Source: Paracoccaceae bacterium (GTDB taxonomy: Bacteria; Pseudomonadota; Alphaproteobacteria; Rhodobacterales; Rhodobacteraceae). Taken from it: a stretch of 64,000 nt of DNA. How positions within the stretch are numbered: the stretch's first letter is position 1; every line of letters starts with the position of its first letter. This document shows positions 43,637-61,799 of this stretch, piece after piece. The stretch covers positions 10,563-74,562 of the forward strand of contig JAQWIK010000109.1 of the NCBI GenBank assembly GCA_029248915.1, written 5' to 3'. A model generated the notes under the pieces. It saw nothing but the letters and a program-made list of their open reading frames with translations, was not told the DNA's origin and ran no database searches. The translations under genes and the position numbers were made by a program.

Positions 43637-43660
43637 TAGAGTGTGAAAATACTTTTAAAA

Positions 43661-43686
43661 ACCGCACCATTTACGGTGCGGTTTTT
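43661..43686 (+). terminator. Rho-independent terminator/attenuator after the BMP binding-protein gene
   Basis: Stem ACCGCACC / GGTGCGGT (43661-43668 / 43675-43682), 6-nt loop, followed by TTTT. A-run upstream. Confidence 0.75.
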
Positions 43687-43705
43687 ATATTGAATTGAGA
43701 AGTAA

Positions 43706-45247: not shown

Positions 45248-45281
45248 TGTGTTTAAATCGTGCAAATGACTTTATTGGAGC

Positions 45282-46385
45282 ATGCAAATGGATATAATGC
45301 CAAAATGGGTAGATATAATTGTTGTTCCGTTAATTTCTGTATTTCTAGCAGCCTTTTTATCTGCATTACTAATTCTAGCGATCGGTGAAAGCCCAATAGC
45401 CGCTTTAAATCTTATGATTGAAGGTACATTATTTCGATCTGCTGGTTGGGGATATATGCTTTATTACACTACGAATTTTATTTTTACTGGTCTTGCTGTT
45501 TCAGTGGCCTTTCATGCTGCACTTTTTAATATTGGAGGAGAAGGTCAAGCTATGATCGGGGGATTAGGAGTAGCACTTGTTTGCCTGTTCATTCCGTGGC
45601 CTCATTGGACATTAGCTATAATTGGCGCTTCAGTTGCAGCCGCTCTTTTTGGTATGATTTGGGCAGGTTTGCCGGCTTATCTCCAGGCAAAAAGAGGAAG
45701 CCATATTGTAATCACCACGATTATGTTTAATTTCATCGCAGCAGGTGTGCTCAATTTCTTCTTGGTAGATGTTTTAAAGCCCAAAGGAAGTATGGATCCT
45801 GCTTCAGCAAATTTTCCAGCAACCACTCACCTCCCCACCTTCCAAGATCTAGCAAGCTTATTCGGCTTTGAGAAAGCATTTAGATCTGCTCCTGCAAATG
45901 TTAGTTTTTTTATTGCGCTTTTGGCATGTGTGGCCGTTTGGTATCTGATTTGGCGCTCTCCATTAGGATACGAAATTAGAGCTTTAGGAAAATCCGGGCC
46001 AGCCGCGCGCTATGCAGGTGTTAGACCGGTCAAAATAATAATGATAGCGATGATGATCTCTGGTGCACTATGTGGAATGATGGCAATCAATACTACACAA
46101 GGGGAAAGTGAACGTCTTATTTTGAACTTCACGGAAGGCGCTGGTTTTATAGGCATCGCAGTTGCTCTAATGGGACGCAGTCATCCGTTTGGAGTTTTAA
46201 TGGCAGCATTATTATTCGGATTTCTATACCAAGGTGGTGCAGAATTAGCCCTATGGACAAAAATACCACGTGAGCTGATCGTAGTCATCCAAGCCTTAGT
46301 AATACTGTTTACTGGCGCCCTCAGTTTGATGGTGAGAGCTCCCCTTGAAAGCTTTTTCATGTCTTTGCAAAAGGCTAAAGGATGA
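45282..46385 (+). CDS. ABC transporter permease (BMP system)
   Basis: 367 aa polytopic protein. FNIGGEGQ block is typical of this permease family. Confidence 0.85.
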   Translation: MQMDIMPKWVDIIVVPLISVFLAAFLSALLILAIGESPIAALNLMIEGTLFRSAGWGYMLYYTTNFIFTGLAVSVAFHAALFNIGGEGQAMIGGLGVALVCLFIPWPHWTLAIIGASVAAALFGMIWAGLPAYLQAKRGSHIVITTIMFNFIAAGVLNFFLVDVLKPKGSMDPASANFPATTHLPTFQDLASLFGFEKAFRSAPANVSFFIALLACVAVWYLIWRSPLGYEIRALGKSGPAARYAGVRPVKIIMIAMMISGALCGMMAINTTQGESERLILNFTEGAGFIGIAVALMGRSHPFGVLMAALLFGFLYQGGAELALWTKIPRELIVVIQALVILFTGALSLMVRAPLESFFMSLQKAKG

Positions 46386-47524
46386 TTGACTTTTTAACCC
46401 TTCTTCAAGTTTTAGATAGCTCACTGCGCCTTGCAACTCCGTTATTGTTAGTTTGCCTGGCTGGATTATTTTCAGAACGCGCAGGTATTTTTGATATCGG
46501 ACTTGAGGGAAAGCTTTTAGCCGCTGCATTTGTTTCTGCAGCTTTTGCATCAATAACAGGATCCGTTTGGTTAGGTCTTTTGGCAGGCATTTTAGCATCA
46601 ATTATGTTATCACTTCTTCATGGGTTAGCGTCGATAACACTCCGCGGAGATCAAATAATATCAGGAGTTGCCATAAACTTTTTAGCAGCAGGTCTTACTG
46701 TGGTAATAGCACAAGATTTGTTTGGGCAAGGGGGACGAACACCGCCATTAAAGTCTGGTGGTAGGTTCGAGCCAATAAATTTTCCAGGTACCACTTCATC
46801 GAAAGAAATCAGTGACGCAGGCCCGTTGATGCAACTCTATTCAGAACTTTTTTCTGGACATTCTCTTCTTGTTTACATCGCCCTTTTGACGGTACCAATT
46901 TCATGGTTTTTACTTTACAAAACGCGGTATGGCCTCCGATTACGGGCTGTTGGGGAAAATCCCGCTGCGGTTGATACAGCAGGCATATCAGTTATCGGCT
47001 TGCGCTATAGTGCAGTTGTTATTGGAGGGGTTTTGTGCGGTATTGCCGGAGCATATATTGCAACCTCCCTGCAAGCAAATTTTACAAAAGATATGTCGGC
47101 AGGCCGTGGGTTTATTGCGCTGGCTGCCTTAATTTTTGCTAAGTGGCGACCATGGTACGCACTAGGAGCATGTTTGTTATTCGGATTTTTCTTTGCTGTG
47201 GATACTCGATTTCAAAATATATTACTGCCCGCTTGGGCTTTAAGTGGGTTTTTAATTTTTATTGCTCTAGGTCTGATGAGTTATGTTTGGAAAAAGGATC
47301 TTTTGGACAAAGTAGTTCTTGGAGGTTTAGCCCTTGGAATTTCAGCTATCGCCATTATGGTGATTTCTTCTGTTTGGAATAGCGGTATTAGTAACCAAAT
47401 AAAAATTCCCGTCGTTTTCATACAGTCATTACCTTATATCCTAACCGTAGTTGTGTTGGCCGGTTTTGTAGGCAAAGCAATTCCTCCCAGGGCTGGTGGA
47501 CAACCATATGTTAAAGAGCGCTAA
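46382..47524 (+). CDS. ABC transporter permease (BMP system), with extra hydrophobic insert
   Basis: 380 aa. GIFDIGLEGK, RLRAVGENP and C-terminal GKAIPPRAGGQPYVKER blocks. ATGA overlap with the upstream permease. Confidence 0.85.
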   Translation: MIDFLTLLQVLDSSLRLATPLLLVCLAGLFSERAGIFDIGLEGKLLAAAFVSAAFASITGSVWLGLLAGILASIMLSLLHGLASITLRGDQIISGVAINFLAAGLTVVIAQDLFGQGGRTPPLKSGGRFEPINFPGTTSSKEISDAGPLMQLYSELFSGHSLLVYIALLTVPISWFLLYKTRYGLRLRAVGENPAAVDTAGISVIGLRYSAVVIGGVLCGIAGAYIATSLQANFTKDMSAGRGFIALAALIFAKWRPWYALGACLLFGFFFAVDTRFQNILLPAWALSGFLIFIALGLMSYVWKKDLLDKVVLGGLALGISAIAIMVISSVWNSGISNQIKIPVVFIQSLPYILTVVVLAGFVGKAIPPRAGGQPYVKER

Positions 47525-47588: not shown

Positions 47589-48509
47589 ATGCAAATTTAT
47601 CTTCCAATAGCTGAAGTTTCAGTGAACGCTTTCCTTTTACTTGGCTTAGGTGGAGTGGTTGGTATTCTCTCCGGAATGTTTGGTGTTGGTGGTGGTTTCT
47701 TAATGACGCCGCTTCTGTTCTTTATTGGCATTCCCCCAGCTGTTGCAGTTGCAACAGAAGCAAATCAGATAGTTGCGTCCTCATTTTCAGGAGCATTGGC
47801 TCATTTAAAACGTAAAACTGTTGATTTAAAAATGGGTTTAATTCTTCTGATTGGTGGTCTTTTGGGGGCTGGAATTGGATTGATTATTTTTAATTATCTT
47901 AAAAGCCTTGGCCAAGTCGATTTACTTGTAAAACTTTGCTATGTTGCTTTCTTAGGTATTATTGGCAGTTTGATGTTTATAGAAAGCTTGCGGGCAATTT
48001 TAAAAACGCAGAGCGGTTTAATACCAAAAAAAGTTCGCAGACCAAGAAGTTTGGCACAACAATTACCCTTTAAAATGCGTTTCAGAACCTCAGGGCTATA
48101 CATTTCCGTAATACCACCAATATTGGTCGGTCTCTTAGTAGGGATCTTATCAGCAATAATGGGTGTTGGTGGTGGGTTTATTATGGTGCCAGCTATGATT
48201 TACATACTTGGCATGCCGACAAAAGTTGTAGTAGGAACATCACTTTTTCAAATTATTTTTGTTACAGGTTTTACAACCATATTGCATGCAACAACAAATT
48301 ACACAGTTGATATAGCTTTGGCTGTTCTTTTACTTTTGGGAGGTGTAATTGGTGCTCAATTCGGTAGCCAGTTTGGAACACGTTTACGGGCTGAACAGTT
48401 GCGAATTCTATTAGCATTAATGGTTATTGCTGTTTGCTTAAAAATTGCCCTCGACTTGTTGATTATGCCAACTGAACTGTACTCAATCAGCAATGCGAGT
48501 ATGCACTAA
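47589..48509 (+). CDS. TSUP (TauE/SafE) family anion exporter
   Basis: 306 aa. Two internal repeats, each with the GVGGGF(L/I)M(T/V)P motif. Confidence 0.8.
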   Translation: MQIYLPIAEVSVNAFLLLGLGGVVGILSGMFGVGGGFLMTPLLFFIGIPPAVAVATEANQIVASSFSGALAHLKRKTVDLKMGLILLIGGLLGAGIGLIIFNYLKSLGQVDLLVKLCYVAFLGIIGSLMFIESLRAILKTQSGLIPKKVRRPRSLAQQLPFKMRFRTSGLYISVIPPILVGLLVGILSAIMGVGGGFIMVPAMIYILGMPTKVVVGTSLFQIIFVTGFTTILHATTNYTVDIALAVLLLLGGVIGAQFGSQFGTRLRAEQLRILLALMVIAVCLKIALDLLIMPTELYSISNASMH

Positions 48510-49264
48510 TGTTGAGGCTATTTTTATTATTTTTGATATCAACTTCATCTGCCATAGCAGAAAGTGTTGTCATTGGAATGGACAAAGAAAAAGTTGCTAT
48601 TACTGCAACATTTGATGGATCCCAAATTTTATTGTTTGGTGCGGTTAAAAGAGATAAACCAGCTCCCATCGGTGATATTCAGGTTGTTGTTACTATAGCA
48701 GGACCATCCGAACCAATTTCAGTTCATAGAAAATCAAAAGTTTTAGGAATTTGGATGAACACTGATACTGTAGAAGTAGATGCTGCACCAAGCTTCTATG
48801 CTGTTGCTACAAGTTCAGGTTTTTCATCAACTATAAATGATACTGAAGACCTAAGATATAAAGTTTCTATACCTCGCGCAATTAGATCTGTTGGTGCACC
48901 AATGGATGTTTTAGATGCAGCTTCGTTTTCAGACGCAGTGATACGCATCAGAAGTGAAAAAGGGTTATATCAACTGCTTGAGAACAAGGTTAATATTGAC
49001 GAACAAACCTTATTTCGGACGTCTATAGACATGCCTGCAGATATATCTGACGGTGACTATACCGCGCGCATTCTCCTAACAAGGAATGGAAATGTAGTTG
49101 ATGAGTTTACTACAATAATTGACGTTAGAAAAGTTGGTTTAGAACGTTTCTTATTTAATATGTCTCGAGAAAACCCTCTGGCATATGGTTTAATGTCAAT
49201 TGCAATTGCTATATTTGCCGGATGGGCGGCCTCATTACTATTTAGATTTTTTAGGACTACCTAG
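48509..49264 (+). CDS. Alphaproteobacterial membrane-anchored protein, TIGR02186/Alph_Pro_TM-like
   Basis: 251 aa. Signal peptide plus a single C-terminal TM helix. TAATG overlap with the TSUP gene. The family assignment is from memory of this conserved gene pair. Confidence 0.5.
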   Translation: MLRLFLLFLISTSSAIAESVVIGMDKEKVAITATFDGSQILLFGAVKRDKPAPIGDIQVVVTIAGPSEPISVHRKSKVLGIWMNTDTVEVDAAPSFYAVATSSGFSSTINDTEDLRYKVSIPRAIRSVGAPMDVLDAASFSDAVIRIRSEKGLYQLLENKVNIDEQTLFRTSIDMPADISDGDYTARILLTRNGNVVDEFTTIIDVRKVGLERFLFNMSRENPLAYGLMSIAIAIFAGWAASLLFRFFRTT

Positions 49265-50131: not shown

Positions 50132-50566
50132 ATGACACAAAACAAACAACTTTTCAGAGAAGAGTTCCCTACCTTTGTCGAGATGCCAACTAGATGGATA
50201 GATAATGACGCCTATGGTCATATGAATAATATTGTCCACTATGCACTAATAGACACAGCTGTTACTGACTGGCAAAGAAACCGCGGGTTCTTTAGTGACG
50301 AACATAAATGTTTAGAATTTATGGTAGTAGAAAGTGGTTGTCGCTATTTTTCGGAAGCTGCATACCCAGATAAAATAGCAGTTGGCTTAAGAATAAAAAA
50401 AATTGGTAATACATCATGGGTATATCAAGCAGGGCTTTTTCGAGAAGAAGATGAACTGTGTTTTGCCCTCGGTTTTTTTGCCCAGGTTCTCGTAGACTGT
50501 GAAAAACGAAGGCCCGCACCTATTCCCAAGAAAATGCATGACGCATTAAAGTTGATAGAAATTTAA
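50132..50566 (+). CDS. Hotdog-fold acyl-CoA thioesterase (4HBT/YbgC-like)
   Basis: 144 aa. RWIDNDAYGHMNN matches the family pattern with the catalytic Asp in D-x-x-G-H-V-x-N. Confidence 0.7.
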   Translation: MTQNKQLFREEFPTFVEMPTRWIDNDAYGHMNNIVHYALIDTAVTDWQRNRGFFSDEHKCLEFMVVESGCRYFSEAAYPDKIAVGLRIKKIGNTSWVYQAGLFREEDELCFALGFFAQVLVDCEKRRPAPIPKKMHDALKLIEI

Positions 50567-50610
50567 TTTGACGCCCATAAAATGCAAAGGATAGTTATTA
50601 TTAAATAAGT

Positions 50611-51696
50611 TCAGAAATTGACCACTTGTCCAGTTTCAGCAGAGGCCTGGGCTGCATGCCCCATCCTTACAGCCCAAATTCCGTCGTCCAGAGTGACCTC
50701 TGGAGGCATTTTCCCATCCACCACGAGCATAAATTTTTGATGTTGATAAAAGGTAGAACCATTATGATCTCCTGCCTCTAATATCTTCTTATCTACGGGC
50801 ACCTCCATCTCTTTTAAAATAGATTTATCTCTAGGACTAACCACTATTTTTGATATTGGAGGAGCACCAAGTTTTTTAGGCCAAAACCTAGCAGGTCCTG
50901 GGATAAAAGCCTCAACTTTGCCAGCCTCTCCAGTGATTGATATCTCTTCTTGATACTTTGAACCTTCTGCAAACATACAGAGTTCCAGCATTGCCTTCAT
51001 ATTATTTTCAAACTCAACAATGACATATCCGTGATCCCAAATATCTGGTACCGAACCAGAGTAATCTTCCTTCAGGTGGTTAACGGCCTGCCCTCCACTT
51101 GCCATTATCTTAATTGGGTTAGACTTTGTAATTAACCTCATCAAATCAAAAAAATGACAGCATTTTTCAACAAATGTCCCTCCACTATTTTTATTAAATC
51201 TGTTCCAATTATCAACTTTAGGAAGAAAGGGAAATCTATGTTCACGGATGGAAAGCATTTTGATACCACCAGTTACATTTTTTTGCTGCCTGATTAGTTC
51301 TGCTATGGGTGGCATATATCGATATTCCATAGCCACCCAAACCGGTGCTGTGTATTGAACTAAAAAGTTTTGTACTCTCTCCAAGTGATTGATGTCAGTA
51401 AACAAAGGTTTTTCCACTAAAATTGGCTTATGAGGTACACTAGCCAATCGTTCCAATTGTTCCATGTGAAGATGATTTGGCGAAACTATTAACCAGCAAT
51501 CAATGTTTTCATCACTTAAAATTTCATCCAGAGAATCATAAAACTTGGACTCTGGAGCAAGTGCTTTTGCCATCTTCTGCATATTTAAATTAGGTTCATA
51601 AACAGCATAAGTTAAAGCATCATCTATTAAATTTATATTGCGAAGATGCTCTTGCCCCATCATTCCACAACCAATAATTCCATACCTTTTTTTCAT
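50611..51696 (-). CDS. Gfo/Idh/MocA family NAD(P)-dependent oxidoreductase
   Basis: I chose ATG 51696 (MKKRYGIIGCGMMGQEH), preceded by AGGAG that overlaps the gntR stop. Rossmann GxGxxG, VEKP motif and the GGTFVEKCCHFFD block are present. Confidence 0.8.
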   Translation of the reverse strand: MKKRYGIIGCGMMGQEHLRNINLIDDALTYAVYEPNLNMQKMAKALAPESKFYDSLDEILSDENIDCWLIVSPNHLHMEQLERLASVPHKPILVEKPLFTDINHLERVQNFLVQYTAPVWVAMEYRYMPPIAELIRQQKNVTGGIKMLSIREHRFPFLPKVDNWNRFNKNSGGTFVEKCCHFFDLMRLITKSNPIKIMASGGQAVNHLKEDYSGSVPDIWDHGYVIVEFENNMKAMLELCMFAEGSKYQEEISITGEAGKVEAFIPGPARFWPKKLGAPPISKIVVSPRDKSILKEMEVPVDKKILEAGDHNGSTFYQHQKFMLVVDGKMPPEVTLDDGIWAVRMGHAAQASAETGQVVNF

Positions 51697-51703
51697 AATG
51701 CTC

Positions 51704-52405
51704 CTAACTGATACGCGTCGTATAGCGTGCAATATTTGTATCGATCCAACTTCGTGAAAACTCTACAGGAGCTCCAACCTGATCGTATGCTAAACGTTCT
51801 ATGCAAACTGTTTCCTGACAATTCATTACTTTAAATTCCTTAGGAGACCAAACAGGCACTGGAAGTAAGGTAGCGCTGTCTTTAGCTGAAGTAATACGCA
51901 AATTAAGAATATCTTTATAAAAGAGATAAATAGACTGTGAAATATTATTAAATTTAAGGCCATCAGTTTTAATCGAGTCTAAGTAAATTTCTTCCAACAC
52001 GCAGGGTAGATTATCTAAGAAACGCAATCGCCTAATCCTCAGGCATTCATCTGATTCTCCAAAAAATGGTGAGGATTTTGGTTTTTTAACTAAATTGATG
52101 TCTAAATTTTTAGCTGAAGGCAAACCTCCGCCATCGATAAGCTCAACTCTAAAAAACGAGTAAATGGAATTAAATTTTGTATTAAATTTTATGTAATTAC
52201 CAGAACCGTGCCTTCGAAATAAAGCACCTTTTTTTTCAAGGTCTTTTAATGATTTGCGCAGTGTTCCAACAGAAATGTTGAGAGATTTGGCCAATTGTCT
52301 TTCAGGCAGAAGACGTTCACCATCAGATAACCGACCTGCTATTATTTCTCTCATAAGCATTTCACTAATTTGGATATAAACTGGTAAAGAAGTAGCTTCC
52401 GACAT
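51704..52405 (-). CDS. GntR family transcriptional regulator, HutC subfamily (UTRA effector domain)
   Basis: I chose ATG 52405 (MSEATSLPVYIQISEMLMREI...). Winged helix LPERQLAKSLNISVGTLRKSLKDLEKKGALFRRHGSGNYI plus an about 150-aa UTRA-like C-terminal domain. Confidence 0.85.
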   Translation of the reverse strand: MSEATSLPVYIQISEMLMREIIAGRLSDGERLLPERQLAKSLNISVGTLRKSLKDLEKKGALFRRHGSGNYIKFNTKFNSIYSFFRVELIDGGGLPSAKNLDINLVKKPKSSPFFGESDECLRIRRLRFLDNLPCVLEEIYLDSIKTDGLKFNNISQSIYLFYKDILNLRITSAKDSATLLPVPVWSPKEFKVMNCQETVCIERLAYDQVGAPVEFSRSWIDTNIARYTTRIS

Positions 52406-52494
52406 GCTTCCAAAATGTAAGTAATTTAAAAATTGATACACTATTGATTTACATATGTTGTAATGTTACGCAAGACTTAACATTAGGGGGGGCT

Positions 52495-53649
52495 ATGACC
52501 GTCGTACCAATAACATCTTATGAATTGAAGGCTGCAGAGATTTCTTGGTTCTCAGCTTTATGCTCTGACGATTATCAATTCTTGGGAGTTCCAGATGGAA
52601 ACCTTCGAAGTTCATGGGACCATTGTAGTCAAATAGTGAAAGAAGCGGAAAACTATGGATTTCGAAATATCCTTTGCCCGTCTTCTTATCAAGTTGGACA
52701 AGACACATTGAGCTTTGTGGCTGGTTGCGCTCCAATAACGGAAAAAATTAATATGCTCGCTGCAGTAAGGTGCGGTGAAATGCAACCCATTATGCTCGCC
52801 CGAACTATCGCCACTTTAGATCACATGCTAAAAGGTCGACTTACTATTAATATCATTAGTTCCGATTTTCCTGGGGAAACCGCTGAGAGTGGATATCGAT
52901 ATAAACGTTCACGGGAAGTAGTTGAAATTTTAAAACAAGCATGGACACAAGATGAGATCAACTATGAAGGTGAGACATACAAATTTTCAGGTCTTACAAC
53001 TGATCCTTCAAAGCCTTTTCAAATTGGAGGACCGCTACTTTATTTCGGTGGCTATTCTCCACCAGCTCTTGAACTATGTGGACAACATTGTGATGTATAT
53101 CTCATGTGGCCTGAACCAAAAGAACAAATAATTAGCCGAATGAAATCTGTAAATGAAGTAGCTGAAAAATATAATAGAACCCTCGATTATGGTTTGAGAG
53201 TTCATATGATTGTTAGAGATTCCGAAATAGAGGCCAAAGAATATGCTGAGTACATAGTGTCAAAGCTAGAGGATGACTTTGGGAAGAAAATTAGAGAGCG
53301 GGCGCAGGACAGCTCTTCCTTGGGAGTATCGCACCAAACAAAAAATAGAAAAATGGCGGATGAATTCGGTTACGTCGAACCTAATCTTTGGACAGGAGTG
53401 GGTAGAGCAAGATCTGGATGTGGCGCTGCTATTGTTGGATCAACTGATCAAGTGATGAGTGAATTGGAACAATATCAGAAATTAGGAATTCGTTCTTTTA
53501 TCCTATCTGGGTACCCCCACCTTGAAGAATGTAAACATTTTGGCTCAAAGGTCTTGCCAAATATAAAAACTTGTTCTTTACCACATGAGTACGGACGAGT
53601 TCCCAACAATACACCTTCAACTCCACTTGGGATAGGGGAGCGTCACTAA
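52495..53649 (+). CDS. SsuD-family (alkanesulfonate-monooxygenase-like) FMNH2-dependent LLM monooxygenase
   Basis: I chose ATG 52495, preceded by a G-rich SD. Blocks LLYFGGYS, DVYLMWPEP, LRVHMIVRDSE, EPNLWTGVG, GAAIVGSTDQV and FILSGYPHLEE line up with E. coli SsuD as I recall it (PLYFGGSS, DLYLTWGEP, IRLHVIVRET, SPNLWAGVG, GTALVGDGPTV, FVLSGYPHLEE). Confidence 0.85.
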   Translation: MTVVPITSYELKAAEISWFSALCSDDYQFLGVPDGNLRSSWDHCSQIVKEAENYGFRNILCPSSYQVGQDTLSFVAGCAPITEKINMLAAVRCGEMQPIMLARTIATLDHMLKGRLTINIISSDFPGETAESGYRYKRSREVVEILKQAWTQDEINYEGETYKFSGLTTDPSKPFQIGGPLLYFGGYSPPALELCGQHCDVYLMWPEPKEQIISRMKSVNEVAEKYNRTLDYGLRVHMIVRDSEIEAKEYAEYIVSKLEDDFGKKIRERAQDSSSLGVSHQTKNRKMADEFGYVEPNLWTGVGRARSGCGAAIVGSTDQVMSELEQYQKLGIRSFILSGYPHLEECKHFGSKVLPNIKTCSLPHEYGRVPNNTPSTPLGIGERH

Positions 53650-54539
53650 TGGAAAGAATTAAAATAAGTTCAACGCTTACCATGTCCCAGTTGGTTTACG
53701 GTATGTGGCGATTAGGTGATGATGAAGATACATCGCCGGACCATGTACGAAATAAAATCGAAAGTTGTTTGGACCAAGGAATAACCTCCTTTGATCAGGC
53801 CGATATTTATGGCGGCTATGAGGCTGAAGAAATTCTAGGAAATGCACTTAAAGGTTCAAGCCTACGTCAAAAAATGGAAATTGTTACCAAGTGCGATATC
53901 GTCGCTCCAGTAGGTAGGTATAAAAATGCTCGCGTTAAGTATTATGATACGTCAAGAGACCATATTTTAAATTCAGTAGAGCAATCTTTAAAGCTAATGG
54001 GTATCGACTACATTGACTTGCTTTTACTTCATAGACCTGATCCATTGATGGATCACTTTGAAACCGGTGCTGCACTTGATGAAATAATTGCTTCTGGGAA
54101 AGTAAGAAATGTGGGCGTTTCAAATTTCAAACCGTGGGATTGGAATTTATTGCAAACTGGGATGAAAAATAAACTTGTCACCAATCAAATTGAGTTAAGC
54201 GTTCTTGCTCACGACGGCTTCACAAATGGAGACGTTGCATTTCACCAAAGTAAAAATACTCCAATTATGGCGTGGTCTCCCTTAGGGGGAGGAGACATAT
54301 TTTTAAAATCTAACGAAAAGATTTTGAATCATCTGGATAGTATAGGAAAAACATTTGGCTTCGAGCCAGGGACGGTCGCCGTTGCCTGGTTGCTCGCACA
54401 CCCTGCCAATATTTTACCTGTGCTAGGAACAAACTCATTGGCCCGAATAGAGACAATTTCAAAAGCCTTAGAGGTTAAATTGGATAGACAAACTTGGTTT
54501 GAAATTTATACAGCTGCGCTTGGACGTGAAGTTGCTTAG
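53649..54539 (+). CDS. Aldo-keto reductase, YdhF-like
   Basis: 296 aa. DQADIYGGYEAEE, DLLLLHRPDPLMD and VGVSNF blocks are very like E. coli YdhF from memory. TAATG overlap with the monooxygenase gene. Confidence 0.85.
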   Translation: MERIKISSTLTMSQLVYGMWRLGDDEDTSPDHVRNKIESCLDQGITSFDQADIYGGYEAEEILGNALKGSSLRQKMEIVTKCDIVAPVGRYKNARVKYYDTSRDHILNSVEQSLKLMGIDYIDLLLLHRPDPLMDHFETGAALDEIIASGKVRNVGVSNFKPWDWNLLQTGMKNKLVTNQIELSVLAHDGFTNGDVAFHQSKNTPIMAWSPLGGGDIFLKSNEKILNHLDSIGKTFGFEPGTVAVAWLLAHPANILPVLGTNSLARIETISKALEVKLDRQTWFEIYTAALGREVA

Positions 54540-54560
54540 TGACAGCGGAATTAGATTTTA

Positions 54561-55022
54561 ATGAAAAATCAGGATGAGTTCAGATTTGCTTTAGGGAAGT
54601 ACACAACAGGGGTCACAATTGTTACCTGTAACGGTAAAAATGGCCCGATAGGAATTACAGCAAATAGCTTTTCAAGCCTGTCTTTATCACCCCCATTAGT
54701 TCTATGGTCACCGGCAAAGGCTTCCAAAAGACATGATACTTTTTTAAAAGCTGAAAAGTTTACAATTCATATTGCTGGTGAACATCAAATTGAGCTATGC
54801 AAAAGCTTTTCAAAGAGCGCTGATGGTGGAAGTGAAATGAATTGGAATTTCAATGATGAAGGTGAAGCCTTTATCAAAAATTGTTCCGCACGGTTTGAAT
54901 GCACAAAATATAGTCACTTTGACGGAGGCGACCATTCAATTATCGTGGGAGAGGTGAAAAAGTTTGAAACTACGGACAATAAACCGTTAGTATATTGGGG
55001 AGGCAATTACCAAAAACTTTAA
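54561..55022 (+). CDS. Flavin reductase (HpaC/RutF-type, NAD(P)H:flavin oxidoreductase)
   Basis: 153 aa. FRFALGKYTTGVTIVT, ITANSFSSLSLSPPLVLWS and DHSIIVGEV blocks are typical of the short flavin reductases that partner two-component monooxygenases. Confidence 0.8.
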   Translation: MKNQDEFRFALGKYTTGVTIVTCNGKNGPIGITANSFSSLSLSPPLVLWSPAKASKRHDTFLKAEKFTIHIAGEHQIELCKSFSKSADGGSEMNWNFNDEGEAFIKNCSARFECTKYSHFDGGDHSIIVGEVKKFETTDNKPLVYWGGNYQKL

Positions 55023-55124
55023 TATTTGACGAAATTCAGAAATATGAAGATAACAAAATTTTAAATAATTTTTTGTTTTTATATCACCAAACTTTTCTGT
55101 TTGACCTATTTTAGATTTTAGAGT

Positions 55125-55159
55125 TTGGTAGCGCTACCAATGGTGCAAATTTTAGCACC
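55125..55159. promoter_or_regulatory. Candidate operator: perfect 16-bp palindrome plus adjacent imperfect palindrome
   Basis: TTGGTAGCGCTACCAA (55125-55140) is a perfect palindrome. One base later comes GGTGC-aaatttta-GCACC (55142-55159). Both lie about 80-110 nt upstream of the binding-protein ATG and just upstream of TATATT (55160-55165). The TGGT...ACCA half-sites resemble HutC/GntR-type operators. Confidence 0.45.
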
Positions 55160-55237
55160 TATATTTTATAAATTAGGTCATCTAGTGACTTAGTTTTTTA
55201 GTACAACTAAAATGTTTCTACTCTCGGGAGGAAAAGA

Positions 55238-56581
55238 ATGAAACGTAATATTAAATCTTTAAGTATCGCAGCTGCTCTGTCCTTAAGTTTTGGGACCATG
55301 GGGATCGCGGGTTCTCACGATGTTTGCAATACGCCATCAAAGTTAGGTGACATGGGAAGTTTTCCTGGCGAAGTCATAACTATGCAAGGATCAATGTTAG
55401 GCACTGACCAAGAAATGTTAGAAAATACCATTAGCTGCTTTGAAAAGGCAACTGGTGCAACAGTTCAATATTCTGGGTCATGTGATTTTGCAGCCCTCGT
55501 CGTTGCAGACATGCGTTCGAATAACCCACCTAACATCGCAATTTTTCCACAACCGGGTCTTGCAGCTGACATGGCCGCGGAAGGTCACCTTATTCCAATT
55601 GGTGATGATGCAGCCTCTTGGATGGCTGATAATTACGGAGCCGGCTCTTCATGGGTCGATCTTGGAACTTATGCCGATGCCAGCGGCAATAAGAATTTCT
55701 ATGGATTTGCATACAAAATGGATCTGAAATCTTTAGTTTGGTATTCACCTGAGCAATTTGAAGATAATGGCTATGAAATTCCTTCTACAATGGAAGAACT
55801 AATTGAGCTTTCTGATCAAATGGTTGCGGATGGCAACACTCCTTGGTGCATAGGTGTGGAGTCTGGAAATGCGACTGGATGGACCGCAACAGACTGGATG
55901 GAAGACATCATGCTACGCACAACTTCAGCGGAAAACTATGATCGGTGGGTTTCAAATGACCTTGCCTTCAATAGTCCTGAAGTAATCAACGCAATGAACC
56001 TTTATGGTCAATTTTCTAGGAATGACGAGTACGTCGCCGGTGGAGCATCATCAGTAGCTACCACGTCTTTCGGTGATGCGCCGAAAGGTTTGTTTACTTC
56101 ACCACCAAGGTGTATGATGCATCGTCAAGCCTCTTTTATCACAGGTTTTTTTCCTGATAAAGGAGAAGAAGTTGCACGCGGTGAGGCAGATGCTTTCTAC
56201 TTCCCTCCATTCGCATCGGGAAATTTAGGAAATCCAGTTCTTGGCGCAGGGACCCTGTACACAATGGCTAAAGACTCGCCTGCAACTCGTGCATTCTTTA
56301 AATATTTGCAAGAAGCCTCAGCTCATGAAGCTTGGATGCAGCAAGGTGTATTCCTAACTGCGCACAAAGGCGCTGACTTATCTGCTTATGCAACACCACT
56401 TCTTAGAAAGCAGGGAGAAATCCTAGCAAATGCAACAACTTTCCGTTTTGACGCTTCTGACTTAATGCCTGGTGCAATTGGAGCAGGTGCTTTTTGGAGC
56501 GAAATGACAGCATTTGCAAACGGACAGGATGCAAAAAGAACAGCTGACAATATTCAAGCAGCATGGGACGCTATTAAGTAA
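55238..56581 (+). CDS. aglE: Sugar ABC transporter substrate-binding protein (AglE-like, alpha-glucoside type)
   Basis: 447 aa. Signal peptide, family-1 extracellular solute-binding protein, GGAGG SD. First gene of an SBP-permease-permease-GH13-ATPase array, identical in order to Sinorhizobium aglEFGAK. The symbol is given by gene order only. Confidence 0.7.
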   Translation: MKRNIKSLSIAAALSLSFGTMGIAGSHDVCNTPSKLGDMGSFPGEVITMQGSMLGTDQEMLENTISCFEKATGATVQYSGSCDFAALVVADMRSNNPPNIAIFPQPGLAADMAAEGHLIPIGDDAASWMADNYGAGSSWVDLGTYADASGNKNFYGFAYKMDLKSLVWYSPEQFEDNGYEIPSTMEELIELSDQMVADGNTPWCIGVESGNATGWTATDWMEDIMLRTTSAENYDRWVSNDLAFNSPEVINAMNLYGQFSRNDEYVAGGASSVATTSFGDAPKGLFTSPPRCMMHRQASFITGFFPDKGEEVARGEADAFYFPPFASGNLGNPVLGAGTLYTMAKDSPATRAFFKYLQEASAHEAWMQQGVFLTAHKGADLSAYATPLLRKQGEILANATTFRFDASDLMPGAIGAGAFWSEMTAFANGQDAKRTADNIQAAWDAIK

Positions 56582-56603
56582 TAATAGCTACCAAACAAGC
56601 TTT

Positions 56604-56631
56604 AAGAGCACAGGGTAAAACCTGTGCTCTT
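56604..56631 (+). terminator. Intra-operon hairpin after the binding-protein gene (attenuator or mRNA-stabilising element)
   Basis: Perfect 11-bp stem AAGAGCACAGG / CCTGTGCTCTT with a 6-nt loop. It is followed by ATTTAATTA, which is a weak U-tract, so it is probably only a partial terminator. Confidence 0.45.
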
Positions 56632-56660
56632 ATTTAATTATCACTAGGTAAACCAAATAC

Positions 56661-57914
56661 ATGCGGTCAGTACAATCGATAATATTTAGCAATAGCTTAG
56701 CTATCGTATTAACGATTGTCTGCGTGCTACCAATTACTGCTGTTTTCATTTTTTCATTAACTGCGCCAATAGATGATGCTTTCGCCAATTTTGGTCTCTG
56801 GCTCCATGATAAATACAATTGGTCTGTAGCTATTTTTGTTACTGAACTTAGATTTGCAAAAGTAGGATTTGCACTACGATCTGTGATAATAGCTTTATTT
56901 ATTTCATTCCTTTATTATTGGATCGCAAATTGGCTCAACTTTGGATTAGCAAATTTCCGATCAAGCAATTCAATCGGGAAAAGGTCAGTAATTGCAGAAG
57001 CTATTCAGCCCTGGATATTTGTAGGGCCAGCATTGATCTTACTCTTACTATTTTTGCTAATTCCTGCACTCACTACATTGAAAATTTCTTTCACAGAACC
57101 TGGTGGAACAGCTTCAGTTAGCAACTATTCATTTCTGTGGGACCAAAATGCTTTAGGTTATATGCAATTTAGGTTGGCTATGAGAAATAGTTTAATGTGG
57201 TTAATTTTAGTACCATCGCTTTGTATAGTATTTGGATTACTTATTGCCGTTTTAGCCGACTCAGTAAGGTGGGGGGTCGTCGCAAAAACATTTATTTTCG
57301 TACCCTTGGCCATCTCGTTTGTTGGAGCAGCCGTGATCTGGCGAAATATCTTGGCAGGTGGAGGTATCGAACCACAAGAAGCAATAAACGGAGTTACACC
57401 TTCCTACCAAATAGGACTACTAAAGGCACTATTAGGACATACACCCGAGTATAATGAACCACTTTATAATCTCAAATTTTGGGGCAACTTTTACCTAATG
57501 TGGATTATGGTATGGATCAAAACCGGTTTTGCGATGGTTATTTTTTCTGCTGCGTTGAGAGGGGTACCGCAAGAGACGGTCGAGGCTGCTATAATTGATG
57601 GAGCTAACCCTCGGCAGCTATTCTTTAGAATAAAGTTACCACAAATTTTTTCAACTGTGGTGGTTGTATGGACATACCTTGTAACAGACGTTTTAAAGGT
57701 ATTCGATATTCCTTACGCATTATCCGCCAATGATGACGATAAGCTTTTGCTTGCTACTATGATGGAAGCTGCAATGAATACCTGGTCTATTGGTGGTAGT
57801 AATGTGGATAATTTATTCGCGGCTATCGCGATCATGCTCATGTTAACAGTTATTCCCCACATGATTTTCCTTGGTTGGCGTATACGCCGTGAACAAAAGC
57901 AATTAGAACATTAA
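56661..57914 (+). CDS. aglF: Sugar ABC transporter permease (MalF/AglF-like) with about 110-aa N-terminal membrane extension
   Basis: 417 aa. EAA-loop region (EAAIIDGANPRQLFFRIKLP). There is no in-frame ATG/GTG/TTG between 56661 and the canonical first helix, so the extension appears to be genuinely coded. Confidence 0.75.
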   Translation: MRSVQSIIFSNSLAIVLTIVCVLPITAVFIFSLTAPIDDAFANFGLWLHDKYNWSVAIFVTELRFAKVGFALRSVIIALFISFLYYWIANWLNFGLANFRSSNSIGKRSVIAEAIQPWIFVGPALILLLLFLLIPALTTLKISFTEPGGTASVSNYSFLWDQNALGYMQFRLAMRNSLMWLILVPSLCIVFGLLIAVLADSVRWGVVAKTFIFVPLAISFVGAAVIWRNILAGGGIEPQEAINGVTPSYQIGLLKALLGHTPEYNEPLYNLKFWGNFYLMWIMVWIKTGFAMVIFSAALRGVPQETVEAAIIDGANPRQLFFRIKLPQIFSTVVVVWTYLVTDVLKVFDIPYALSANDDDKLLLATMMEAAMNTWSIGGSNVDNLFAAIAIMLMLTVIPHMIFLGWRIRREQKQLEH

Positions 57915-57928
57915 GAGGTTGTTAAAAT

Positions 57929-59155
57929 ATGTTTAATCGTTCTTTTGCTCACATTATCCTGGCATTAATTTTGGTAATATGGGTGGTTCCCTTTATCGCT
58001 CTTATAACAACATCGTTCAGATCAGAAGTTGCATCTAAAACTTCAGGTTTTTGGACAGCATTCACGCCAACTGAACTTGGGCATCGCTTTAGTACACATG
58101 ACAAAGGGCAACAATTCAAAGTCATCGAAATGCGCGGTAATATTTTTGAACGGATAAATAAGAGCGAAGAATGGTTTACGATATCTGGGGGAATAAACTC
58201 AATTATGTTTAAGGGTAGAGTGCCTGACCCCGATAAACCAGGTAAAACCAAGTTAATTCGAAAACTAGTGCCCGCAGGCGAAGTCATGGATGTTCGCGGT
58301 GGGGAATTTATTTTCCAAGCTAACGGTGATTTTATTTGGTCTTTTCCAGAAGCAACAGCACCAAAGCCAAAAAACCTTGATGTTTTTATTAATCAAGATC
58401 CAGTATTTGGAGCGGAGGCCTATTTTGAGGTCTTGTTAGATAACAAAGACGTTCCAAACGCTCTGATATCTTCCTTTATCGTGGTGGTGCCCGCAACAAT
58501 AATTCCTATTACAGTTGCTGCGTTTGCTGCATATGCTTTTTCATGGATGCAGTTTCCAGGCCGAGACTGGTTATTTATACTTGTAGTTTCACTGATGGTG
58601 GTGCCAACCCAGTTAGCTTTTTTACCAATTTTACAGGGCTTCAACGGGCTTGCAAGCTGGGCTACTGCACTTAAACAATGGACGACGGATTGCGAATTGA
58701 CAAACACATGCCAATTCCCAACTAAGTCATTCGCAGGTTTGTGGCTTACTCATACAGGCTTTGGCCTTCCTCTCGCTATCTTTCTTTTGCGCAATTACAT
58801 CGTAGGATTGCCGCGGGAATTACTTGAGAGCGCCAAAATCGACGGTGCTAATCACATGCAAATTTTTGTGAAAGTAGTTATACCACTTTCTGTACCAGCA
58901 CTCGCTTCATTCAGTATTTTCCAGTTTCTCTGGATCTGGAATGATCTATTGGTAGCTATGTTTGTTGGACCTACTGCAAATGATGATGTAGTTTTTCCAA
59001 TTTTACTAGAAAGACAATTAGGAACTTTTGGAGACCAACTTCATCTTCTGAATGCTTCCGCAGTGATTTCCATGGTAGTACCAGTGATAGTATTTCTTGC
59101 TATGCAAAAATATTTTATTAAGGGATTGCTCGCCGGATCCGTCAAGGGAGGCTGA
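57929..59155 (+). CDS. aglG: Sugar ABC transporter permease (MalG/AglG-like) with large periplasmic loop
   Basis: 408 aa. EAA loop ESAKIDGANHMQIFVKVVIP. An about 150-aa hydrophilic segment sits between the first and second helices. Confidence 0.75.
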   Translation: MFNRSFAHIILALILVIWVVPFIALITTSFRSEVASKTSGFWTAFTPTELGHRFSTHDKGQQFKVIEMRGNIFERINKSEEWFTISGGINSIMFKGRVPDPDKPGKTKLIRKLVPAGEVMDVRGGEFIFQANGDFIWSFPEATAPKPKNLDVFINQDPVFGAEAYFEVLLDNKDVPNALISSFIVVVPATIIPITVAAFAAYAFSWMQFPGRDWLFILVVSLMVVPTQLAFLPILQGFNGLASWATALKQWTTDCELTNTCQFPTKSFAGLWLTHTGFGLPLAIFLLRNYIVGLPRELLESAKIDGANHMQIFVKVVIPLSVPALASFSIFQFLWIWNDLLVAMFVGPTANDDVVFPILLERQLGTFGDQLHLLNASAVISMVVPVIVFLAMQKYFIKGLLAGSVKGG

Positions 59156-59158
59156 AAA

Positions 59159-60727
59159 ATGTCTACTTTGAAATGGTGGGAAAACGCCGTAATCTACCAA
59201 ATTTATCCCAGGTCATTTCAGGACTCAAATAGCGATGGCATTGGTGATCTCAACGGCATCGCCTCAAGATTGAATTATATTGCAGATCTTGGTGTTGATG
59301 CTATCTGGGTTAGCCCCTTTTTCATGTCTCCTCAATATGACTTCGGCTATGACGTATCTAACTATTGCGATATTAACCCTGAGTATGGGACCCTTACTGA
59401 TTTTGATAATCTAATTCAGAAAACTCATAAGCTTGGTTTACGCCTTATGATAGATATTGTCCCCGCACATTGTTCTTCCTTGCACCCTTGGTTTGAAGAA
59501 AGCCGCCAGTCTAGACATAACTCAAAAGCTGACTGGTTTCATTGGGTAGATCCAAAACCAGACGGATTACCACCTAATAATTGGTTATCGTTTTTTGGAG
59601 GCTTAGCTTGGTCTTGGGAACCACGGCGTCAACAATACTATTTACATAATTTTTTACCAGAGCAGCCAAATTTAAATCATGCGAACCCTCAGGTGCGTGA
59701 CGAGTTAAATAAAATAGCAAGATTTTGGTTTGACCGTGGCGTGGATGGTTTCAGATTAGACGCAGTCCACACAATCAACGGAGATACTGCACCTTACAGA
59801 GATAATTTAGCAGATCCAAATTTTGTTCTCGGGCCCTTACCCCAAGACAAACAACCTTCTTTTAGACAATTGCATGACGTGGCTCAACTTAATCAGCCAG
59901 TGATCCAGAGCTTTAGTTCAGCTTATAGAAAAATAGCTGACGAGTATGAAGGTGATCGCTTTCTTATGGGAGAGGTGGATGGAGACGAAGGTAATGCTAT
60001 GAACGTCAGTAAGACGTTTTCAGAACCTGGTCGGCTCCACGCAACTTATAATTTTGATCTGCTTGAATGGTCAGGATTGACAGTCTCTGAACTTAAAGAA
60101 GCTATTTCAAATGCAATAAAGGTTTTCAACGGATCAGGTCGACTATGCTTTGCCTTTTCTAACCACGACGTTCCAAGATCAGCAACTCGCCAACTGGAGC
60201 CACTTGAAATTTCACTGGATAAACAAGATAATTTGCAGCTGTTACTTCTTCAGCTGGAAACATCACTTATTGGCTCAACCTGTATCTATCAGGGTGAAGA
60301 ATTAGGTCTTTGTGACGTTACTGATATTCCTGTAACAAAAATGAAAGACCCCTGGGGTATAAACTTTCATCCTGAATTCTTAGGAAGAGATACATGCAGA
60401 ACACCTATGGTCTGGAATAAGAAACAGTCTATGGGTGGATTTACATCAGGAAATCAGTCCTGGTTACCAATAGCTGAACCTCATTTAGAAAAGGCCGCAC
60501 TGGAAATGGCAATAAATACTAAATCTGTATACAGTAAGTTTTCAAAATTCTTAAAATGGCGGAAAAAGCAGCCAGCGATGATGCATGCTAATATCATGTC
60601 AGAAGTGTCTGGTGGCCCTAAAGAAATAATTTTTGATAGAATGAGTGACTCTCAAAAATTGAGATGTAAATTTGATTTTGAAATGGTTAAAGCCACCTTT
60701 GAAGAGGTAAAGTATGGCACAAGTTGA
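59159..60727 (+). CDS. aglA: GH13 alpha-glucosidase (AglA / oligo-1,6-glucosidase-like)
   Basis: 522 aa. WWENAVIYQIYPRSFQDSNSDGIGDL start. Conserved regions DIVPAH (I), GFRLDAVH (II, nucleophile Asp), GEVDG (III, acid/base Glu) and FSNHDVPR (IV) are all present. Confidence 0.88.
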   Translation: MSTLKWWENAVIYQIYPRSFQDSNSDGIGDLNGIASRLNYIADLGVDAIWVSPFFMSPQYDFGYDVSNYCDINPEYGTLTDFDNLIQKTHKLGLRLMIDIVPAHCSSLHPWFEESRQSRHNSKADWFHWVDPKPDGLPPNNWLSFFGGLAWSWEPRRQQYYLHNFLPEQPNLNHANPQVRDELNKIARFWFDRGVDGFRLDAVHTINGDTAPYRDNLADPNFVLGPLPQDKQPSFRQLHDVAQLNQPVIQSFSSAYRKIADEYEGDRFLMGEVDGDEGNAMNVSKTFSEPGRLHATYNFDLLEWSGLTVSELKEAISNAIKVFNGSGRLCFAFSNHDVPRSATRQLEPLEISLDKQDNLQLLLLQLETSLIGSTCIYQGEELGLCDVTDIPVTKMKDPWGINFHPEFLGRDTCRTPMVWNKKQSMGGFTSGNQSWLPIAEPHLEKAALEMAINTKSVYSKFSKFLKWRKKQPAMMHANIMSEVSGGPKEIIFDRMSDSQKLRCKFDFEMVKATFEEVKYGTS

Positions 60728-61772
60728 ACTTAAAAATGTTGCGAAGTCTTTTGGAAAAACAGAAGTTATAAGAGACGTACACTTATCAATAGAAAAGGGG
60801 GAATTCGTTGTCTTCGTTGGCCCATCTGGTTGTGGGAAATCAACGCTACTGAGGCTAATTGCTGGTTTGGAAAACCTAACAGAAGGTGAAATTATAATAG
60901 CAGACAAACCAGTTATGGATTTACCTCCATCTGAACGCGGAATTGCTATGGTTTTTCAGTCATACGCTCTTTATCCACATATGTCTGTTTTTCAAAATAT
61001 GGCTTTTTCTTTAAGTCTCCAAAGCTTATCAAAAGATGATATCAAGAAACGAGTAGAGGCGGCAGCTAAAATTCTTCAAATGGAGCATCTTCTGGACCGT
61101 AGGCCAGCTGCGTTGTCTGGTGGACAGCGGCAACGTGTTGCTATTGGACGAGCGATCGTTAGAAATCCTGATGTATTTTTATTTGATGAACCGCTCTCAA
61201 ATTTAGATGCTGCACTACGACATGATACGCGCGTTGAGATCGCCAAATTACATAAGCAATTAGATGCTACAACTATATACGTAACCCATGATCAGGTTGA
61301 AGCCATGACCTTAGCTGACAAAATAGTTGTCCTAAAAGATGGAGAAATTATGCAAGTGGGATCGCCAATGGAATTATTCAATACGCCTGCAAATGAGTTT
61401 GTTGCTGGATTTCTTGGTTCACCAAAAATGAACTTTTTTGATGGGAATTTATCAAAAGTTACTAAAAGTGGCTCAACAGGGTCTTTTGCTGGAGAAGGTT
61501 TTACGGCAAATAGTATTCGGCTTAATTCACCAGAAAAGCGAGCTGAAGAAAAAATACTGTTGGGTATTCGCCCACAGCACTTACAAATCGATGTAAAAGG
61601 TAACTTGTCAGGTAAAGTGACATTAGTCGAAAAACTTGGAACGGAAACTGTTGTTGAATTGATTACTGAAAATGGAACCCCCTTCAGATATGCGGCGGCA
61701 GAAACTCCCAATATAACAACTGGAGACAAGCTAAAATTTAAATTCGAAAGTGATAAAGCTCACTTATTTTAA
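60714..61772 (+). CDS. aglK: Sugar ABC transporter ATP-binding protein (MalK/UgpC/AglK type)
   Basis: 352 aa. Walker A GPSGCGKST, signature LSGGQRQR, Walker B FLFDEPLS and a C-terminal TOBE-like domain. Overlaps the GH13 gene by 14 nt. Confidence 0.9.
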   Translation: MAQVELKNVAKSFGKTEVIRDVHLSIEKGEFVVFVGPSGCGKSTLLRLIAGLENLTEGEIIIADKPVMDLPPSERGIAMVFQSYALYPHMSVFQNMAFSLSLQSLSKDDIKKRVEAAAKILQMEHLLDRRPAALSGGQRQRVAIGRAIVRNPDVFLFDEPLSNLDAALRHDTRVEIAKLHKQLDATTIYVTHDQVEAMTLADKIVVLKDGEIMQVGSPMELFNTPANEFVAGFLGSPKMNFFDGNLSKVTKSGSTGSFAGEGFTANSIRLNSPEKRAEEKILLGIRPQHLQIDVKGNLSGKVTLVEKLGTETVVELITENGTPFRYAAAETPNITTGDKLKFKFESDKAHLF

Positions 61773-61799
61773 GCCAAATATTTATTCTAAATATGAGAC

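Follow-up and report, generated by a model that had tools for sequence, protein, structure and literature searches.

We analyzed a 64,000-nucleotide stretch (hereafter the window) of contig JAQWIK010000109.1 from the Paracoccaceae bacterium assembly GCA_029248915.1, in which three consecutive open reading frames (ORFs) on the plus strand encode a luciferase-like monooxygenase, an aldo-keto reductase (AKR) and a flavin reductase. These genes are called smoC (squD), smoB (squF) and smoA below, after the genes of the sulfoquinovose (SQ) monooxygenase (sulfo-SMO) pathway that they resemble. The ORF coordinates bore out the arrangement described in a first-pass annotation of this DNA, three same-strand genes in a row with a TAATG overlap and a 21-nt gap. 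The smoC ATG has a Shine-Dalgarno-like run (GGGGGGG) in front, the start of smoB overlaps the smoC stop by one base (cacTAATGg), and exactly 21 nt (54540–54560) separate smoB from smoA. Pfam assigned the products to Bac_luciferase (3e-49), Aldo_ket_red (1.6e-53) and Flavin_Reduct (PF01613, 5e-36), respectively. Public annotation gives the window proteins generic names only ("LLM class flavin-dependent oxidoreductase," "aldo/keto reductase").

Transcribed divergently from smoC is a second operon, overlooked in the first-pass annotation, in which a regulator gene (gntR) is followed by sqgA, the gntR stop sitting 7 nt before the sqgA ATG. Mechanical ORF calling placed the starts of three genes differently from the ones used here. 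For smoC it began at TTG 52444, where public gene calls and every orthologue use ATG 52495; for gntR at GTG 52441, where ATG 52405 gives 233 aa, as called in the near-identical contig L097; and for sqgA at 51732, the likely start being ATG 51696 after AGGAG (public call, 361 aa). With starts at 52495, 51696, and 52405, a conserved operator-like motif (see below) falls between genes and not within a coding sequence. Scans of positions 50400–62000 for promoters and terminators gave chance-level counts (26 vs. 29.8 expected and 10 vs. 9.1), so that nothing was learned from them on operon boundaries, and no Rfam family or tRNA was matched anywhere in the window. The features of the locus are collected in Table 1.

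Table 1. Features at the smo locus and in the adjoining transport block (positions within the window).
Feature	Position	Strand	Details
sqgA, GH188 NAD+-dependent sulfoquinovosidase orthologue	50611..51696	-	GFO_IDH_MocA domains, match to 8ZN9
GntR/HutC-family regulator, SmoD-like, first gene of divergent gntR-sqgA operon	51704..52405	-	GntR helix-turn-helix (HTH) + UTRA
Operator-like motif AATTGATACACTATTGATTTAC	52431..52452	.	direct repeat ATTGAT-N5-ATTGAT in 89-nt divergent promoter region
smoC (squD), FMNH2/O2-dependent sulfoquinovose monooxygenase orthologue	52495..53649	+	384 aa, ATG to TAA 53647-53649
smoB (squF), NADPH-dependent aldo-keto reductase orthologue	53649..54539	+	296 aa, ATG start
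smoA-type flavin reductase	54561..55022	+	153 aa, ATG start
Perfect 14-bp palindrome TGGTAGCGCTACCA	55126..55139	.	in 215-nt spacer between smoA and the substrate-binding protein gene
AglE-like sugar ABC substrate-binding protein	55238..56581	+	Pfam SBP_bac_1
Two ABC permeases, AglF/AglG-like	56661..57914, 57929..59155	+	Pfam BPD_transp_1 in both
GH13 alpha-glucosidase, AglA/MsGH13-like	59159..60727	+	Pfam Alpha-amylase 1e-115
MalK/UgpC-type ABC ATPase, AglK-like	60714..61772	+	Pfam ABC_tran, OB_MalK, TOBE_2; NCBIfam UgpC 456 bits

SmoC, SmoB, and SmoA and their conservation

In a search against all PDB chains, SmoC matched 7OLF over its entire length (E = 3e-207, 691 bits) and scored 675 bits with 7OH2, whilst its more distant relatives MsuD and Escherichia coli SsuD reached 189 and 181 bits. 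7OLF and 7OH2 are the SmoC enzymes of Agrobacterium tumefaciens (AtSmoC) and R. oryzae (RoSmoC), which define the sulfo-SMO pathway and are SQ-specific (Sharma et al. 2022, PMC8795539). Over the full length, global identity was 74.2% to AtSmoC and 73.2% to RoSmoC; AtSmoC itself is about 30% identical to SsuD (Sharma et al., PMC8795539). All seven residues listed in that paper are kept, namely the FMN-phosphate gate Y136/S189 and the sulfonate site W206, R236, H238, Y341, and H343 (Y136, S188, W205, R235, H237, Y340, and H342 in our feature-list numbering). Identity to Rhodobacteraceae orthologues was 79–94%, or 79–83% outside the two closest single-cell assemblies (SAGs). Marine surveys have used a criterion of at least 60% identity to Roseobacter denitrificans SmoC, and the identities given here are to AtSmoC, RoSmoC and the Rhodobacteraceae orthologues.

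The SsuD blocks that the first-pass annotation had quoted (YFGGYS, LMWPEP, VHMIVRD, NLWTGVG, and SGYPHLEE) were all found in the SmoC translation, and the best-scoring NCBIfam family is alkanesulfonate monooxygenase. Its score with the SsuD equivalog TIGR03565, though, was 243.2 bits against a cut-off of 518.2, so SmoC is not an SsuD in the curated sense.

SmoB aligned over its full length with 7BBY, 7BC0, 7BBZ, and 7BC1 (E = 5e-120, 403 bits), compared with 196 bits for YdhF. The entries 7BBY and 7BC0 are AtSmoB, the NADPH-dependent 6-oxo-glucose reductase that makes glucose (PMC8795539), to which SmoB is 62.5% identical. Seven functional residues taken from the same paper were checked and found conserved: the catalytic tetrad D/Y/K/H (D49/Y54/K81/H128 in feature-list numbering), the glucose contacts K120 and R152, and the nicotinamide-stacking W232 (K97, R129, and W209 in the feature list). 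The labels "SsuD-like" and "YdhF-like" used in the first-pass annotation thus refer to relatives at a greater distance. In L097, a 341-kb metagenome contig with a window-like arrangement, smoB (10155–11046) is called as two ORFs of 160 and 142 aa, which would mean that it is a frameshift pseudogene or that an error arose in assembly or polishing.

To assess conservation, one genome per species was scanned. At least 586 stretches encode relatives, and the best 80 (L001–L080), all from Rhodobacteraceae and Roseibium/Labrenzia and with SmoC 78–94% identical, were taken as the conservation set. With order and orientation kept, the genes next to smoC encoded SqgA in 78 of the 80 loci, GntR in 79, SmoB in 78, and SmoA in 73. 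Closest to the window are two single-cell assemblies, AG-390-A18 and AG-359-N23, with the cultured strain HIMB11, whose layout is the same, further off. Plasmids of Ruegeria, Marinovum algicola, and a Rhizobium carry the smo core as well. The 90%-identity clusters of the window proteins hold 125–2320 metagenomic members, some of them from Tara Oceans. Given the E values of SmoC and SmoB to solved structures and a gene order kept in 73–78 of the 80 genomes, the module is not a product of chance.

The third product belongs to the HpaC/FerA-like flavin reductase family. Outside its closest relatives the SmoA homologue following smoB is 39–54% identical, and identity to the syntenic reductase of the Rhizobium sp. 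SL42 plasmid is 41%. Because there is no solved SmoA structure, its orthology rests on position, and it would be the enzyme that supplies FMNH2 to SmoC.

The divergent gntR-sqgA operon and a shared operator-like motif

The sqgA product carries the N- and C-terminal GFO_IDH_MocA domains and matched 8ZN9 (504 bits) ahead of 8QC2 and 8QC3 (343 and 337 bits). 8ZN9 is RdSqgA, a GH188 (glycoside hydrolase family 188) NAD+-dependent sulfoquinovosidase whose gene lies upstream of the sulfo-SMO cluster in R. denitrificans (PMC12780224), and 8QC2/8QC3 are the founding SqgA structures, FlSqgA and ArSqgA (PMC10755693). Identity to RdSqgA was 60.4%, above the 54% cut-off of Ma et al., and seven of the seven listed residues are kept (K108, Y137, R166, L170, K172, E189, and H193, corresponding to K98, Y127, R156, L160, K162, E179, and H183 in RdSqgA). 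By fold, residues, and an identity of at least 54%, the protein is a GH188 SqgA orthologue, and by analogy it would release SQ from sulfoquinovosyl glycerol (SQGro) in the cytoplasm. Such GH188 sulfoquinovosidases are near-universal in Roseobacter sulfo-SMO clusters (PMC12780224, PMC10755693). No GH31 sulfoquinovosidase was present among the ORFs scanned around the locus. An SqgA orthologue next door indicates that the substrate of the module is SQ and its glycosides.

The regulator encoded by gntR combines the Pfam GntR HTH domain with a UTRA effector domain, as in HutC-type proteins. In the divergent promoter region lies an operator-like motif with the consensus AATTGATACAC[T/C]ATTGAT[C/T]TAC, also written AATTGAT-A-N-A-NN-ATTGAT-N-TA. 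The exact 16-mer is present as a single copy in the window and as one copy in each of 35 loci. With up to three mismatches, the motif was found 62–201 nt upstream of smoC in 81 of 81 sequences, at GC contents of 40–68%, and 15 of its positions never vary; the best matches at other places in these loci carry 2–6 mismatches. We regard it as a putative binding site of the GntR/HutC regulator. No description of the ATTGAT-N5-ATTGAT motif was found in the sulfoquinovose literature searched.

The downstream ABC/GH13 block and the importer

Downstream of smoA, an ATP-binding cassette (ABC) transporter and a GH13 enzyme are encoded in the same order as in aglEFGAK of S. meliloti (PMC3518184): substrate-binding protein (SBP), two permeases, GH13, and ATPase. 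The likeness lies in gene order and domain content. A LacI-type operator-like palindrome lies upstream in the window too, but there is no adjacent aglR-like gene. The permeases and SBP gene are conserved together in L001, L002, L004, and L083–L097. JGI labels members of the SBP's 90% cluster as "alpha-glucoside transport system substrate-binding protein."

Against the PDB, the GH13 protein scored 438–448 bits to 3WY1, the Halomonas H11 alpha-glucosidase (438 bits), and to 6AAV. It has all eight MsGH13 residues at identical numbering (D61, H104, R199, D201, E272, H336, D337, and R410), of which D201 is the catalytic nucleophile and E272 the acid/base; the GH13_23 subfamily label is taken from the MsGH13 preprint (10.1101/2023.03.31.535182). 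In that work MsGH13, which stems from a Marinovum sp. metagenome-assembled genome and was expressed to test for sulfoquinovosidase activity, was inactive on p-nitrophenyl (PNP)-sulfoquinovoside and was a broad alpha-glucosidase; glucosylglycerol does not figure in the substrate list given there. On the MsGH13 biochemistry and the identical active-site residues, a role of the window enzyme as a non-classical sulfoquinovosidase was rejected.

The spacer between smoA and the SBP gene is without a smo operator. It holds the palindrome TGGTAGCGCTACCA, the sole exact copy in the window, which is conserved in L001 and L002. Related boxes, AAATGTTAGCG and CAAAGCGCTTTG, precede the SBP gene in other loci with an adjacent LacI-family gene; in L003 that gene is inserted behind smoA, ahead of the SBP gene, and in L030, L043, L047, and L050 it is next to the SBP gene. 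The palindrome may therefore serve the downstream block as an operator of the LacI family (AglR-like). As the window has no gene for a LacI homologue, the matching regulator would be located elsewhere or have been lost.

Agl-like blocks with an SBP at least 90% identical also occur on other marine contigs, with no smoC, smoB, sqgA, or gntR within 8 kb. In these contigs (L083–L096) the block is preceded by an intact flavin reductase gene and has different flanking genes (e.g., L083 7312–14529, corresponding to 54561–61772 of the window); indeed, in this group of marine lineages a flavin reductase gene is always in front of the agl block. The reductase of the contigs lacking smoCB is about 49% identical to the window SmoA, groups in a neighbour-joining tree with SmoA of the window, L001–L004, and HIMB11, and is under purifying selection (dN/dS of about 0.08 between two sub-lineages). 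A search of L083–L096 for remnants of smoC, smoB, sqgA, and gntR returned none at E ≤ 0.01, and the best match to the smo operator there had 4 mismatches. The SAG GCA_902606205.1 likewise has no smoCB at its agl locus. Two histories would account for this "reductase + agl" unit, either loss of smoCB, sqgA, and gntR with the reductase kept or insertion of the smo core beside a resident reductase. Its existence without smoCB is the main reason for still considering a functional link between the smo core and the ABC block.

Position by position, the gene directly after smoA belongs to a TRAP (tripartite ATP-independent periplasmic) transporter of the DctQMP type (SqoKLM-like) in 52/80 loci and to an Agl-like ABC system in 4/80, and is other or unknown in 20/80. 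The TRAP system has been proposed as the SQ importer (PMC10507154). M. algicola plasmid pMaD9 has the smo core with another sugar ABC system, an esterase, and a second dehydrogenase; the pMaD9 SBP gave no match to the SQGro-binding protein SmoF (7NBZ/7OFY) and is unrelated to the window SBP. On the Rhizobium sp. SL42 plasmid, a Roseobacter-type core is accompanied by a TRAP system and a "putative sulfate exporter family" gene. The transporter cassettes beside the smo core are therefore interchangeable, being TRAP, Agl-like ABC, or the third, unrelated ABC of pMaD9.

A sugar ABC importer had been taken in the first-pass annotation as supporting context for the sulfonate module. One does adjoin the core, but we conclude that the ABC/GH13 block is probably a neighbouring, separately regulated operon for alpha-glucoside uptake and hydrolysis, on account of its dissimilarity to SmoF, the JGI name, the inactivity of MsGH13, its adjacency to smoA in only 4/80 loci, its own palindrome, and the copies without smoCB. 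It is unlikely that the eleven-gene region forms one system in which the AglE-like ABC transporter imports SQGro or SQ, perhaps along with alpha-glucosides of similar structure such as glucosylglycerol, and the GH13 enzyme handles co-imported neutral glucosides. Because SqgA has no signal peptide and depends on NAD+, SQ glycosides have to enter the cell intact, and the Agl-like ABC system is the only transporter adjoining the core, with no TRAP homologue in the window. The adjacency of smoA and the SBP gene is also kept from the window lineage to HIMB11 (SmoC 83% identical), and an Agl-like block lies within 10 kb of smoC in 9/80 loci, which a rough estimate, not a computed statistic, places above random position. 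A 2026 review calls the uptake of SQ substrates in aquatic bacteria largely unknown (PMC13436972). Set against this are the SBP, with its alpha-glucoside cluster name and no resemblance to SmoF; a LacI-type palindrome in place of the smo operator; the LacI-family genes that accompany the block in L003, L030, L043, L047, and L050; the near-identical blocks with no smoC, smoB, sqgA, or gntR nearby; and the failure of MsGH13 to act on PNP-SQ. Moreover, where both transporters are present (L047 and L079), it is TRAP that holds the spot directly after smoA. That the AglE-like system imports SQGro or SQ, perhaps plus look-alike alpha-glucosides such as cyanobacterial glucosylglycerol, in those streamlined pelagic Roseobacter-group lineages that have it behind the reductase and lack a TRAP system at the locus is likewise unlikely; if true, the "reductase + agl" unit would have a function of its own and not be a mere neighbour.

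The genes beyond the block were also inspected. A TauE/SafE-family "sulfite exporter" homologue (47589–48509), paired with an Alph_Pro_TM membrane protein (48509–49264), lies about 4 kb from the smo locus. It was rejected as a part of the SQ system, as the pair is missing from all 82 loci and from the collinear L001, L002, and L097 (for L097 by gene list); the pair represents an insertion or deletion of some 1.7 kb, not a conserved component. Further upstream (42605–47524) is a BMP-family (PnrA-like) ABC operon that encodes a double-ATPase and a binding protein along with two ORFs (367 and 380 aa) whose L097 counterparts carry BPD_transp_2 permease domains; this operon is collinear with L001, L002, and L097 and has no evident link to the smo genes. 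Right after the ABC ATPase, on the minus strand, are an enoyl-CoA hydratase gene (61800–62573) and an ORF (62570–63412) with an HMGL-like counterpart in L097. The genes of 61800–63412 look like leucine/isovalerate catabolism and would mark the downstream edge of the sugar-related region.

A probable sulfo-SMO core in a pelagic Paracoccaceae lineage

Taken together, orthology, functional residues, synteny, and motif conservation support a SmoC/SmoB-type assignment, and the three genes very probably constitute the enzymatic core of the sulfo-SMO (sulfo-ASMO) pathway in an uncultured pelagic member of the Paracoccaceae (Roseobacter group). The first-pass annotation had proposed a sulfonate-to-aldehyde-to-alcohol module following SmoC/SmoB logic, and this proposal held beyond analogy, since smoC and smoB are orthologues, with 74% and 62.5% identity and residues conserved. 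In such a pathway SQGro or free SQ would enter the cell, where the cytoplasmic, NAD+-dependent SqgA would free SQ from SQGro. The flavin reductase would make FMNH2 with NAD(P)H; with this FMNH2 and with O2, SmoC would break the C6-S bond to yield 6-oxo-glucose and sulfite. SmoB would then reduce 6-oxo-glucose to glucose with NADPH, the glucose passing into central metabolism. The GntR/HutC regulator is probably a repressor that acts on both divergent operons at ATTGAT-N5-ATTGAT, and repression would be relieved by SQ or a derivative.

Several observations weigh against this interpretation. The flavin reductase is the least conserved component (39–54% identity), and related reductases precede Agl-like blocks in L083–L096 with no smoCB within 8 kb; reductases kept in this setting slightly weaken the case that the enzyme is dedicated to SmoC. 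A tblastn search with the DctQMP proteins of L073 showed the TRAP system to be absent from the 64-kb window, and the window SBP had no match to SmoF (7NBZ/7OFY) even at E ≤ 10. With neither a SmoF-like nor a TRAP system in the window, no importer can be assigned, and the locus is without the recognised SQ/SQGro importer of a sulfo-SMO cluster. As the importer type varies among published clusters, this absence does not exclude membership. No structure of SmoC in complex with SQ exists to show what determines SQ specificity (PMC8795539). Finally, we infer the enzyme activities from characterised orthologues, and the roles of the regulator and operator and the uptake route are put forward on the same footing.

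The lack of such a structure, together with a transporter context unlike that of every characterised cluster, might suggest that the true substrate is a different but related sulfonate, perhaps an SQ derivative or some other 6-sulfo sugar, with the AKR reducing the matching aldehyde. We consider this very unlikely, given the 74% and 62.5% identity to SQ-specific and glucose-forming enzymes, the conservation of all glucose-contacting residues of SmoB, the co-located SqgA orthologue with its full residue set, and the growth on SQ that orthologous clusters support in R. denitrificans and D. shibae (PMC12780224). Even less probable is a classical SsuD/SsuE alkanesulfonate system for sulfur scavenging with an unrelated AKR lying between the two genes by chance. 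The superfamily (Bac_luciferase) and chemistry are common to both, and alkanesulfonate monooxygenase is the top NCBIfam family, but SmoC falls short of the equivalog cut-off (243 vs. 518 bits) and scores 181 bits to E. coli SsuD vs. 691 to SmoC. E. coli SsuE is of the flavodoxin-like FMN reductase family, whereas the window reductase is of the Flavin_Reduct (HpaC/FerA-like) family. Furthermore, Pfam and NCBIfam domain scans found no ssuABC-type sulfonate transporter, and the AKR gene, translationally coupled to smoC, accompanies it in 78/80 genomes. Sulfate-rich seawater also leaves little need for sulfur scavenging (PMC13436972).

As an orthologous sulfo-SMO core, the locus can be set beside the known systems. 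With smoABCDEFGHI of A. tumefaciens C58 (PMC8795539) it shares SmoC and SmoB orthologues, a flavin reductase of the type of SmoA (Atu3277), a GntR-family regulator, and the same logic, from SQ glycoside to SQ, to 6-oxo-glucose and sulfite, and to glucose. It differs in having GH188 SqgA in place of the GH31 enzyme SmoI, in being without the SmoEFGH transporter (the adjacent SBP being unrelated to SmoF), and in gene order, gntR-sqgA diverging from smoC-smoB-smoA. The Roseobacter clusters of R. denitrificans OCh 114 and D. shibae DFL 12 carry these five core genes in identical order and orientation, as far as they are described in PMC12780224, PMC10755693, and PMC10507154 citing Liu et al. 2023, but Roseobacter-type loci typically continue with DctQMP (52/80), where the window has its aglEFGAK-like block. 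By description, the Marinovum sp. metagenome-assembled genome that encodes MsGH13 (contig NZGN01000053.1; Li et al. 2023, 10.1101/2023.03.31.535182) is alike in SmoC, SmoB, and SmoA, in an ABC cassette with a binding protein, and in a GH13_23 enzyme replacing the GH31 sulfoquinovosidase; that preprint predates the recognition of SqgA, and the regulator, the operators, and block copies lacking smoCB are not discussed there. E. coli SsuD/SsuE shares the luciferase-like TIM-barrel fold, FMNH2/O2 chemistry, sulfonate-binding residues, and a partner flavin reductase, but that reductase is of another family, there is no AKR or glycosidase, and the system serves sulfur scavenging and not, as it would here, carbon catabolism. 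The sulfo-SDO/ASDO pathway (SqoD + SquF; Ye et al. 2023, PMC10507154) has the SmoB/SquF step and a GntR regulator in common, with TRAP in typical clusters, but cleaves the C-S bond with an Fe/alpha-ketoglutarate dioxygenase, where the window would use the flavin-dependent SmoC and its reductase.

The pathway, its occurrence in Roseobacters, the GH188 gateway, the association with TRAP, and a GH13-containing variant are already published, so that the proposal made in the first-pass annotation is a rediscovery. The additions made here are minor: the operator motif, the separate LacI-type ABC/GH13 unit, the interchangeable transporter cassettes, and the "reductase + agl" unit. Output of SQ is about 10 billion tons per year, and the Roseobacter group is counted as a principal marine consumer of it (PMC12780224, PMC10755693); Roseobacters with the sulfo-SMO cluster can use SQ and SQGro for growth (PMC12780224). 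The locus offers better annotation for generically named genes, and the operator motif may help to mark sulfo-SMO clusters and to probe their regulons. Since the TRAP system of 52/80 loci is absent from the window, the locus also points to the question of how SQ is taken up. The pathway itself is left unchanged, and our reading would mean that an abundant, uncultured, low-GC (about 40%) lineage of pelagic Paracoccaceae very probably carries its complete enzymatic core.

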